Notes: generated from the sequence alone by a model not told the origin. Positions 18,930 to 53,132 are shown, counted from the stretch's first letter. The stretch: DNA of 64,000 nt from Candidatus Aenigmatarchaeota archaeon (GCA_038998335.1 JAVZHQ010000001.1:352001-416000); one strand, 5' to 3'. Translations and numbers: made by a program.

Positions 18930-19550
18930 ATGAAGACAGAATCTTTAACTGTCGAGAAAGCTGAGCTAATAGGACTACTGTGCGCAGACGGTACACATTA
19001 TCACTATATTTCCATTTACAATCGATTTTATCCGAAACGAGGAAAATACTATACCACAATAAGTCCAAAAGAACAAATAGAATTTGGCAATTTAAACATA
19101 AAACTTTTGAAACATTTCCAAAAATTACTTAAGATTGCGTATAATTATCATCCTAAAATTACTGGTACTCCTAAAAGTTTAAAAATTCATATAAGTAAGA
19201 AAAATATAATTAAAGACCTATTGCAGTATACGGATTTTGGATCCGAAAAATGGAAGGTCCCAAAAGAAATTAAAGAAGGTCCTTTCGACGTTAAGGCGGC
19301 TTTTATTAGAGGAGTTTACGAAGGTGATGGGGTAAAGCTTCAAACATCAAAATATGGCAAACCATATTTATTTTTTGAAATGAAAAATAAACCTTCATTA
19401 GAAGATTTAAAGAAATTACTTCAAGATATTGGAATTAACGCAAGAATAAATAAGAATAGTAATGGGATGACTAGATTAATAGTGTATGGTTTTGAGAACA
19501 TTACGAAATTTAAAAAATTTATAAAACCAAAATATAAAAAGCTCGGGTGA
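18930..19550 (+). CDS. Free-standing two-motif LAGLIDADG homing endonuclease
   Basis: LIGLLCADG and FIRGVYEGDG; no intein splice motifs. Confidence 0.85.
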   Translation: MKTESLTVEKAELIGLLCADGTHYHYISIYNRFYPKRGKYYTTISPKEQIEFGNLNIKLLKHFQKLLKIAYNYHPKITGTPKSLKIHISKKNIIKDLLQYTDFGSEKWKVPKEIKEGPFDVKAAFIRGVYEGDGVKLQTSKYGKPYLFFEMKNKPSLEDLKKLLQDIGINARINKNSNGMTRLIVYGFENITKFKKFIKPKYKKLG

Positions 19551-19645
19551 CCGAACCAGGTCTAGGTAGTCGGCTGCAGTTGGTCTTTTGATAAAAGATG
19601 AAAAGTTGAGACCGACGCATGCGGGTTCAAATCCCGCCCCGAGCT
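19541..19645 (+). tRNA. tRNA-Cys(GCA) with 31-nt intron 19580-19610 (37/38)
   Basis: GCTCGGG/CCCGAGC acceptor, U73, GTCGG-CT-GCA-G|A-CCGAC, GGTTCAAATCC; relaxed splice motif. Confidence 0.92.
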
Positions 19646-19660
19646 TTTTAAAACTGGAAG

Positions 19661-21082
19661 TTGAAGAAAATGGTGCTCAAACTTTTTAACACTTTGACAA
19701 GAAAAAAGGAAGTTTTTAAGCCTATAAGAAAGAATGAAGTAAGAATGTATACTTGTGGCCCAACAGTTTATGATTTTGCTCATATAGGAAATTTTAGAAC
19801 TTATGTTTGGCAAGACATTCTGAAAAGATGGCTTCTTTTTAAAGGGTTTAAAGTAAAGCATGTGATGAACTTAACTGATATAGATGATAAAACTATTAAA
19901 GGAGCAAGAGAACAGGGAATCTCTTTAAGGGAATTTACGGAAAAATACATAAAAGCATTTTTTGAAGATTCAAAAACTTTGAACCTATTACCTGCAGATG
20001 TTTATCCAAGGGCAACTGAACATATAAGGGAAATAGTCGAGCTCATAAAAATTCTTATAGAAAAAGGCTACGCTTATAGAGGCGAGGACGGCTCAATCTA
20101 CTATGACATTTCTAAGTTTAAGGATTATGGTAAACTTTCTAAGCTTAAAATAAAAGAGCTAAAAGCTGGAGCAAGAGTTAAGTCAGACAGCTACACAAAA
20201 GAAGAAGCTTATGATTTTGCTTTATGGAAAGCCTGGGATCCTGAGGACGGAGAAGTGTTCTTTGAAACTGAAATAGGTAAAGGAAGGCCAGGATGGCATA
20301 TAGAGTGTTCAGCCATGTCAATGAAGTATTTAGGCGAGACTTTTGACATTCATACAGGCGGCGTAGACTTAATCTTTCCGCATCATGAGAATGAAATAGC
20401 TCAAAGCGAGGCAGCCACAGGAAAAAAATTTGTAAATTATTGGTTACATGCTGAGCATTTAATAGTCGAAGGAAGAAAAATGTCCAAATCGCTAGGAAAT
20501 TTTTACACTTTACGAGACTTACTTGCTAAAGGTTATGACCCAAGAGCAATAAGATATTTACTTCTTTCTACTCATTATAAACAACAGCTCAACTTCACTT
20601 TTGAAGGGCTAGAAGCAGCAAAAAATACTGTAGAAAAACTCATCAACTTTCTTTGGAAGCTAAAAGAAATAAAAGGAGGAAAAGAAAACAAGCAAGTAAA
20701 AAAAATGATAAAAGAAACTAGAGAAAAGTTTGAAGAAGCAATGGATGACAACTTAAGGATAAATGATGCGTTGGCTGTTATGTTTAAGTTTGTAAACCAG
20801 GTTAACAAGTTAATTTCACAAAACAAAATCGGAAAGAAGAACTCTAAAGAAATTATAGATTTAATTTTAAGCTTTGACAAAGTTCTTGGGCTAAACTTAG
20901 AAGAAGCAATAAAAGAAGAAAAGCTACCAGAAGAAATTCAAAAGCTTCTAAAGGAAAGAGAAGAGGCAAGAAAAAGAAAAGATTGGAAGCTTGCCGACGA
21001 GCTAAGAGAAAAAATAAAAGAGTTAGGCTATTCTGTTGAAGATACTCCTGAAGGACCTCTGTGCAAAAAAATTGGAAAATAA
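19661..21082 (+). CDS. cysS: Cysteine--tRNA ligase
   Basis: CGPTVY, HIGN, GRPGWHIEC, KMSKS. Confidence 0.97.
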   Translation: MKKMVLKLFNTLTRKKEVFKPIRKNEVRMYTCGPTVYDFAHIGNFRTYVWQDILKRWLLFKGFKVKHVMNLTDIDDKTIKGAREQGISLREFTEKYIKAFFEDSKTLNLLPADVYPRATEHIREIVELIKILIEKGYAYRGEDGSIYYDISKFKDYGKLSKLKIKELKAGARVKSDSYTKEEAYDFALWKAWDPEDGEVFFETEIGKGRPGWHIECSAMSMKYLGETFDIHTGGVDLIFPHHENEIAQSEAATGKKFVNYWLHAEHLIVEGRKMSKSLGNFYTLRDLLAKGYDPRAIRYLLLSTHYKQQLNFTFEGLEAAKNTVEKLINFLWKLKEIKGGKENKQVKKMIKETREKFEEAMDDNLRINDALAVMFKFVNQVNKLISQNKIGKKNSKEIIDLILSFDKVLGLNLEEAIKEEKLPEEIQKLLKEREEARKRKDWKLADELREKIKELGYSVEDTPEGPLCKKIGK

Positions 21083-39117: not shown

Positions 39118-39214
39118 GCGCCAGTAATCTAACCTGGTAGGATTAACTATACTAATACCAGCTTCCCAAATCTGGAATAAGCTGGGTGTCCGGGTTCAAA
39201 TCCCGGCTGGCGCA
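39118..39214 (+). tRNA. tRNA-Gly(CCC) with two introns (39144-39156 at 25/26; 39169-39179 at 37/38)
   Basis: GCGCCAG/CTGGCGC; cloverleaf restored by removing both inserts; TTCC/GGAA helix at 37/38. Confidence 0.88.
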
Positions 39215-53023: not shown

Positions 53024-53132
53024 GCTGGGATAGTTCAGCGGTTAGAACGCGGCGCTCATAAGCTTTATGAGCTTTGAAAAAATGATGAAAGATGAAACGC
53101 CGAAGTCCCGGGTTCAAATCCCGGTCCCAGCA
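53024..53132 (+). tRNA. Elongator tRNA-Met(CAT) with 36-nt intron 53062-53097 (best BHB at 38/39)
   Basis: GCTGGGA/TCCCAGC, CGGCG-CT-CAT-AA|CGCCG; BHB helix TCAT/ATGA. Confidence 0.9.

Follow-up and report, generated by a model that had tools for sequence, protein, structure and literature searches.

Can the intron of a tRNA gene guide the modification of its own transcript when it is only 31 nt long? This question is raised by a tRNA-Cys(GCA) gene located on the plus strand at positions 19541-19645 of a 64,000-nt stretch of DNA from a Candidatus Aenigmatarchaeota archaeon (GCA_038998335.1, JAVZHQ010000001.1:352001-416000), which is referred to here, in its full length, as the window. A preliminary description had proposed that the intron is a minimal K-loop guide aimed at C39 of the tRNA, and every prediction of this proposal that can be made at the level of sequence held in relatives collected without bias towards the feature. 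On balance, we favor the interpretation that the intron is a natural half-mer box C/D guide, which would direct 2'-O-methylation of C39 (Cm39) in cis before splicing takes place.

The two exons of the gene (19541-19579 and 19611-19645, the latter including the discriminator T at 19645) flank the intron at 19580-19610, with the anticodon GCA (positions 34-36) at 19576-19578. This layout was obtained from the sequence and from ARAGORN with introns allowed. The intron occupies the canonical 37/38 site, and its length and the coordinates given for it in the preliminary description were all right. The intron boundary can slide by one base (G19579 and G19610 are identical), the mature tRNA sequence being the same either way.

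All elements of the putative guide are encoded on the plus strand. The antisense element at 19579-19586 consists of G37 and the first seven intron bases and corresponds to guide positions N+9 to N+2 (alignment columns 12-20, see below). It is separated by a single base, N+1 at 19587, from a D'-like box, TTGA, at 19588-19591. A K-loop spacer of 6 nt (19592-19597) leads to the C'-like box ATGAAAA at 19598-19604, positions 5-7 of which are able to pair with D' positions 2-1 and N+1 (columns 21-23 with 38-40). After a linker at 19605-19608 follows the target strand, 19609-19616, comprising the last two intron bases, A38 (19611) and positions 39-43. Scans for boxes, guides and duplexes recovered the pairing of 19579-19586 with 19609-19616 as it had been described, with 8 bp, of which seven are Watson-Crick pairs and one is G-U. 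G19583, the N+5 base, lies opposite C19612, and this is indeed position 39, the predicted methylated base; in the tRNA fold the 39-43 strand pairs instead with positions 27-31 at 19569-19573. The claim that the target exists both across the 3' splice junction and in the mature tRNA was borne out as well: since A36 and G37 recur as the final two bases of the intron, the duplex has 8 bp in both contexts.

Taken by itself, the single sequence is weak evidence. We prepared 20000 dinucleotide-preserving shuffles of the intron and allowed the guide to pair with any part of the precursor tRNA (pre-tRNA). A box-like pair was present in 8131 of them (41%), and boxes together with a guide of at least 8 bp in 253 (1.3%). 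The intron is thus moderately unusual, and such frequencies are compatible with chance, that is, with a short A/T- and GA-rich intron that happens to hold box-like tetramers and some self-complementarity. The weight of the argument rests on the relatives.

A DNA search in 61 related genomes yielded full-length matches including the intron in seven and 5'-partial matches in two. Furthermore, 118 genomes of the order were searched with the pattern CTGCAG-N30-60-GGTTCRAATCC, in which exact CTGCAG and GGTTCRAATCC were needed. This pattern covers only the T-loop and the part of the anticodon loop that ends at G37, and it holds no box or guide information, so that the feature itself was not selected on. 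Matches were obtained in 31 of the 118 genomes, and 27 of the 31 proved to be tRNA-Cys genes interrupted at 37/38 by an intron of 18-33 nt. Four matches were dropped, namely G023 (not a tRNA), G032 (a tRNA-Leu), G088 (a tRNA-Glu) and G062. Two genes from the DNA search, in G004 and G031, were added, because an extra intron in the T-loop defeats the pattern. This resulted in 29 intron-bearing tRNA-Cys genes from the families f1, f4, f5, f6 and f7. Applied to 371 genomes of the phylum, the same pattern gave matches in 21 that lie outside the order, and none of these matches had the arrangement when inspected by eye.

Some of these loci have features of their own. The added genes of G004 (L012) and G031 (L013) carry the 37/38 guide intron and, in the T-loop, another intron of about 17 nt. 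The tRNA-Glu(UUC) gene of G088 (L046) has a 40-nt intron holding a box-like TTGA and CTGAGATGA. In G062, ARAGORN reports a tRNA-Cys(gca) with a 21-nt intron placed elsewhere, a discriminator A and no box pair.

Both boxes, a D'-like N-T/C-G-A and a C'-like N-T-G-A separated by a gap of 3-8 nt, are present in 28 of the 29 intron-bearing genes. The one exception, G078 (L040), has a boxless intron of 18 nt at the 37/38 site, from which the antisense has gone too; it looks like a natural loss within family f1. That a boxless intron occurs at the same site suggests that splicing in itself can do without the boxes. If G062 is a genuine tRNA-Cys, it would be a second boxless case. The 28 box-bearing arms were aligned with MAFFT (alignment A1, 26 distinct rows; G078 omitted). 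The GA of the D' box and the TGA of the C' box are invariant in all 28, although the first two D' bases differ between lineages (CTGA, GTGA, GCGA and TCGA occur besides TTGA) and the K-loop spacer, 3-8 nt long, is variable in sequence as well as length. Boxes close to the consensus are found in G042 (CTGA and ATGATGC), G074 (CTGA and ATGACGT) and G031 (TTGA and TGATGA). The register is equally constant: all 28 genes have a G at N+5, and in each of them it pairs with C39. Owing to the constant gap of one base between the helix and the D' box, position 39 is placed at N+5 in every lineage, despite changes in the sequence of the helix.

The helix itself shows compensatory changes. Pairing in the guide helix reaches 99.4% across alignment A1. 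N+3 pairs wholly within the intron with the last intron base, and this pair, which is open in the splicing fold, occurs as CG (13), UA (6), AU (4) and GC (3), and both AU and GC are found inside the genus g36. Similarly, N+8 and position 42 form UA in 11 and CG in 8 cases. Within the putative kink, D' position 1 and C' position 6 (columns 22:39) are joined by UA in 18, GC in 6 and CG in 2 rows, which makes Watson-Crick pairs in all 26 distinct rows; we take this to be the pair formed between the C of box D and the G of box C. One step further inward (columns 23:38) the pair is standard in 14 of the 26 rows, and the 12 others include U-U, an opposition typical of C/D boxes. The family thus displays GA in D', UGA in C' and D' positions 1-2 facing C' positions 5-6, the arrangement by which a K-loop is recognized.

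The full guide structure is 92.5% paired, as compared with 37-58% when the 3' partners are slid by one to three columns. Its covariation score was reached by none of 500 column shuffles. Related sequences may beat shuffles without any structure, and hence more weight attaches to the slid controls and to the variety of pair types. We regard it as highly probable that the K-loop and the antisense helix constitute a selected structure. The frequencies obtained with shuffled introns would still allow chance for the window, but invariant boxes, a constant register and compensatory changes over five families, together with control values that are far lower, make this explanation extremely improbable.

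Does the intron act on the molecule that carries it? In 8 of the 28 genes the duplex formed with the pre-tRNA is longer than that formed with the mature tRNA, by 2 bp; in 20 it is equal and in none is it shorter. The pre-tRNA duplex never being the shorter one suggests that selection acts on the unspliced form. The equality in 20 genes, that of the window among them, would also suit a guide acting in trans, in which the 31-nt intron, once excised and possibly circularized, would assemble with L7Ae, Nop5 and fibrillarin and methylate C39 in mature tRNA-Cys or in further pre-tRNA-Cys molecules, as has been reported for the tRNA-Trp intron of Haloferax. Two reviews, in the parts consulted, describe the tRNA-Trp intron guide as working in trans (PMC11408192, PMC4090602), and the circularization of archaeal tRNA introns is reported in PMC7994747. 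Three findings speak against this alternative: 1583 sites in the 1.0-Mb genome are complementary to the 8-bp guide when G-U pairs are tolerated, the mature-tRNA duplex is 2 bp shorter in the 8 genes, and N+3 and the last intron base covary, being joined by four types of pair, so that the unspliced junction is under selection. Since the 8-mer is non-specific in trans and the junction pair covaries, action in cis is favored, and tethering would be the simplest source of specificity. We therefore consider a guide acting on other molecules improbable, while leaving room for an action in trans on another precursor molecule. Ribosomal RNA (rRNA) was considered as a target in trans, too. There is no match of at least 8 bp to 16S or 23S rRNA with Watson-Crick pairs only, and G-U-tolerant matches of 8-10 bp are at chance level; this candidate was rejected.

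A guide for C39 that acts in cis has to share its target strand with the splicing fold. The anticodon stem 5' strand (positions 27-31, 19569-19573) is the rival of the guide for the 39-43 strand; this stem (27-31 with 39-43) is 100% paired in the family, with compensatory changes at three of the five pairs. Because both folds use the 39-43 strand (columns 48-52), they are mutually exclusive, and each has its own covariation. This is in line with the earlier suggestion that the guide fold competes with the splicing fold. The splice helix had been called poor, and this is accurate. The linker at 19605-19608 forms the 3' strand of the central splice helix and pairs weakly with positions 32-35 (19574-19577), as C-G, a U-U mismatch, G-U and C-G, hence two Watson-Crick pairs, one G-U and one mismatch; only 74% of the cells are paired across the family. 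Of the bulge-helix-bulge motif, which in its regular form has a 4-bp helix between two 3-nt bulges at the splice sites, the 3' bulge and the outer helix are present. With its weak central helix and unconserved inner helix, the motif appears to be relaxed.

The weakness of the central splice helix could also be accommodated if the K-loop and the alternative helix were real without having a role in methylation. For instance, a kink bound by L7Ae might, as a folding or timing device, hold the 39-43 strand while other processing of the precursor is completed, stabilize the short intron, or help the endonuclease to find a poor splice motif. Such a role would be in line with the 3' strand of the K-loop stem continuing directly into the splice helix, and with L7Ae binding kink motifs in several contexts other than methylation, as noted in the parts consulted of PMC5539422 and PMC6298567. 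The short duplexes of genus g31 and the mismatch in G041, described below, fit it equally well. It does not predict the fixed spacing that places position 39 at N+5 in 28 of 28 genes, and the boxless intron of G078 is presumably spliced at the same site. It likewise does not predict the targets of other introns of this genome, to which we now turn, and we deem a purely structural role rather unlikely.

Four sister introns with the same one-K-loop layout were found in the genome, in tRNA genes for Met(CAU), Leu(CAA), Trp(CCA) and Leu(UAA), and in each the best duplex sets N+5 on position 34. According to the part of PMC7994747 that deals with Pyrococcus, position 34 of exactly these four tRNAs is a target of box C/D sRNAs (small guide RNAs). 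One of the four, an elongator-type tRNA(CAU) gene, lies in the window (53024-53132, plus strand; mislabeled by ARAGORN as Ser(cga)). Its intron contains TTGA, a 5-nt spacer and a consensus-like ATGATGA, and a perfect 8-bp antisense to the anticodon loop places N+5 on C34. The other three lie outside the window, at C1:569471-569588 (Leu(CAA)), C1:663523-663634 (Trp(CCA)) and C1:785187-785307 (Leu(UAA)), with introns of 32-35 nt. The tRNA-Trp(CCA) intron of this genome holds no guide for position 39.

Further interrupted tRNA genes were noticed in the same genome. Two tRNA-Ser genes (C1:281225-281370 and C1:504696-504833) have introns of 59 nt and 53 nt that, to judge from their C, D', C' and D-like boxes, resemble complete box C/D sRNAs. 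An initiator-like tRNA gene at C1:556995-557113 has a complex interruption, with CTGA, a 6-nt spacer and ATGAGGA beside an internal helix of 8 bp.

The proteins that such a guide would need are encoded in the genome. Fibrillarin (281.9 bits), Nop5 (230.3 bits) and L7Ae (109.3 bits) all exceed the Pfam cut-offs, and the Nop5 and fibrillarin genes are adjacent (C1:769150-770470), with L7Ae at C1:789289-789564. A single splicing endonuclease was identified (PF01974, 95.1 bits, in an open frame of 193 aa; gene at C1:649574-649852).

Based on these data, we propose the following sequence of events for the cis-acting guide. The D'-like and C'-like boxes would fold as a K-loop, a kink closed by a short loop, in which tandem sheared G-A pairs give way to two or three standard base pairs. 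L7Ae would bind the K-loop, and Nop5 and fibrillarin would join afterwards. The eight bases upstream, G37 and the first seven intron bases, would oust the 5' strand of the anticodon stem and pair with the 3' splice junction and positions 38-43. C39 would thereby be set opposite the fifth base upstream of the D' box, and fibrillarin would methylate its 2'-OH, yielding Cm39. Upon release of the ribonucleoprotein (RNP), the anticodon stem and the bulge-helix-bulge could re-form, and the splicing endonuclease would remove the intron. Protein binding, methyl transfer, the order of methylation and splicing, and action in cis are parts of this scheme that we infer. In a hot-spring setting, ribose methylation would plausibly stabilize the anticodon stem.

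Several observations weigh against this interpretation. To begin with, the boxes of the window are degenerate. The consensus of C/D boxes is CUGA (D/D') and RUGAUGA (C/C'), and the two boxes match it at 3 of 4 and 5 of 7 positions. A terminal C/D pair, the kink-turn closed by a terminal stem, is absent, the 31-nt intron holding one C-like box. We considered the TTGA at 19606-19609 as a second D box and rejected it: it begins 1 nt past the C' box and so cannot pair with it, it leaves no space for a guide, and it is unconserved outside family f1. With no second box pair, the intron would not be a canonical bipartite C/D RNA but a natural half-mer. The duplex is short, with 8 bp in the window and 5-6 bp in the seven genes of genus g31. 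In G041 it has 4 bp, followed by a mismatch beside the target. Over the 28 genes the duplex comprises 9 bp in 8, 8 bp in 12, 6 bp in 6, 5 bp in 1 and 4 bp in 1, and archaeal guides are given as 10-12 nt, longer than these, in the section consulted of PMC7994747. Concerning a single guide site, a hemi-complex was active in vitro but not site-specific, according to the part consulted of PMC1635284. The corresponding part of PMC9670817 presents a one-K-loop half-mer from another archaeon's system as active and site-specific in vitro.

Energetics and phylogeny add to these reservations. At 37 C, the naked RNA of the window's gene favors the tRNA-like fold as the minimum free energy structure (-15.3 kcal/mol versus -9.2 to -11.3 for guide folds), so that population of the guide fold would depend on protein. 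RNAalifold applied to the family returns the anticodon stem only. The minimum free energy structure also contains an intron hairpin, 19583-19589 with 19593-19599, which was not treated as functional, as RNAalifold shows no conserved intron helix. The aligned rows are mostly close relatives, and independent compensatory events are few, roughly three to five. Finally, six tRNA-Cys genes of the order are without this intron, three being intron-less (G006, G008 and G023) and three having an intron of another kind or at another site. Hence, any modification would be dispensable or otherwise supplied in these organisms. These six genes (L015, L016, L018, L023, L034 and L035) have C31:G39, and all 28 guide-bearing tRNA-Cys genes have G31:C39; this split may be mere phylogeny.

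How does the proposed guide compare with known systems? The closest precedent is the euryarchaeal pre-tRNA-Trp intron, which at the 37/38 site acts as a box C/D guide in Haloferax volcanii and, as sR50, in Pyrococcus. It functions via L7Ae, Nop5 and fibrillarin, and a table in Hori 2018 lists its products as 'Cm34 and Um39 (or Cm39)'. Position 39 is thus one of the two sites guided by that intron, as had been stated for it in advance. The comparison can be drawn from the accounts in reviews. Common to both are an intron in the anticodon loop, a duplex that spans a splice junction, position 39 of the host tRNA as a target (predicted for tRNA-Cys), a guide fold that excludes the splicing fold, and the L7Ae-Nop5-fibrillarin machinery, which is encoded here. 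The tRNA-Cys intron differs in its host, in its length of 31 nt, in having one box pair (the K-loop) and one guide instead of two of each, and in having no guide for position 34. It would therefore work like the pre-tRNA-Trp intron guide and would stand outside the canonical bipartite C/D family.

A second likeness is to the engineered monopartite guides MMG4 and MMG5. As set out in the part of Wang, Yang and Ye 2022 (PMC9670817) that was available to us, these have one kink motif (K-turn or K-loop), a guide 5' of it and the target at guide position 5, and duplexes of 8-11 bp suffice when L7Ae is present. MMG4 and MMG5 are synthetic guides that work in trans, and Saccharolobus proteins at 70 C were used to test them, whereas the putative tRNA-Cys guide would be natural and tethered to its substrate. 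Thirdly, the elongator tRNA-Met intron of Nanoarchaeum equitans, as presented in the portion consulted of Randau 2012 (PMC3491384), is a guide-like RNA in a non-Trp tRNA intron of a DPANN archaeon. Unlike the tRNA-Cys intron, it is 66 nt and hence twice as long, it is depicted there with both a box C and a box D, as a C/D sRNA, and no target has been established for it.

Reviews of 2014 (PMC4090602) and 2024 (PMC11408192) call the tRNA-Trp intron unique as a guide for its own tRNA, in the passages that treat it. In the open-access literature searched, taken without supplements and without the original papers on the tRNA-Trp intron and the K-loop, we found no tRNA-Cys intron guide and no natural half-mer guide in tRNA introns. 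What appears to be new here, judged from the sequences, is the tRNA-Cys host, the predicted sole target C39 in the 3' exon, and the joining of the target to the C' side of the K-loop.

The covarying tRNA-Cys guide and the four versions directed at position 34 suggest that some reduced archaea make general use of introns that guide the modification of their own tRNA, which would give short tRNA introns a function. The tRNA-Cys intron would be a natural example of the single-K-loop half-mer, which, in the sources consulted, has so far been shown to work only as an engineered construct; the authors of the half-mer study ask, in the part at hand, whether simpler guides exist in archaea (PMC9670817). 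More tentatively, it is conceivable that a family of natural one-K-loop half-mer guides, in introns of at most 35 nt, runs the ribose methylation of the anticodon arm strictly in cis in this order, whose members are small archaea of hot springs. The guide would have first claim on the 39-43 strand (in the versions for position 34, on the anticodon loop), which the tRNA fold would receive afterwards, so that a checkpoint before splicing would be built in. The tRNA-Cys gene would then exemplify a re-aiming to the 3' exon, and the arrangement may be the ancestral minimal form of box C/D guides. In any case, the 49-nt anticodon arm with its intron offers a compact and testable system for the contest between a guide RNP and the splicing endonuclease over one strand.

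The tRNA-Cys gene is easily overlooked. With introns allowed, ARAGORN lists 45 tRNA genes in the whole genome, including tRNA-Cys(GCA) with a 31-nt intron at C1:371540-371646 (window 19540-19646). The Rfam tRNA model (RF00005) matches 19541-19645 with 42.2 bits (gathering score 29) and a 34-nt insertion in the anticodon loop when 221 bases are searched. The gene is missed by default ARAGORN on the window (3 tRNAs listed) and by Rfam at the gathering threshold on the whole window (5 tRNAs listed), so that its detection requires the intron mode of ARAGORN or a small Rfam search space. The C/D families of Rfam gave zero matches in 19480-19700 at E-values up to 10. Another tRNA gene in the window, at 39118-39214 on the plus strand (Rfam 38.7 bits), is miscalled by ARAGORN as Ile(aat) and given a 2-nt intron; on visual inspection, it could be a tRNA-Gly(CCC) that carries two short insertions.

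The genome comprises 1.0 Mb in 9 contigs with 33% G+C, and its rRNAs match archaeal models in Rfam. Of sampled words of this DNA, a fraction of 0.21-0.43 is present in runs of two studies labeled as hot-spring metagenomes, a possible source sample being excluded. Immediately upstream of the tRNA-Cys gene, an open reading frame (ORF) of 206 aa at 18930-19550 (plus strand) encodes a LAGLIDADG-like domain (PF14528, 54.5 bits). Its end overlaps the first 10 bases of the tRNA gene, and the tRNA promoter must therefore lie inside the 3' end of this ORF. Downstream, the cysteinyl-tRNA synthetase gene cysS (19661-21082, plus strand; PF01406, 400.8 bits) begins 15 nt after the tRNA gene on the same strand; it belongs to the context and is not part of the element. 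A start codon and a similar coding sequence just 3' of the tRNA gene, judged from the flanks, are found at seven of the tRNA-Cys loci with a 37/38 intron.
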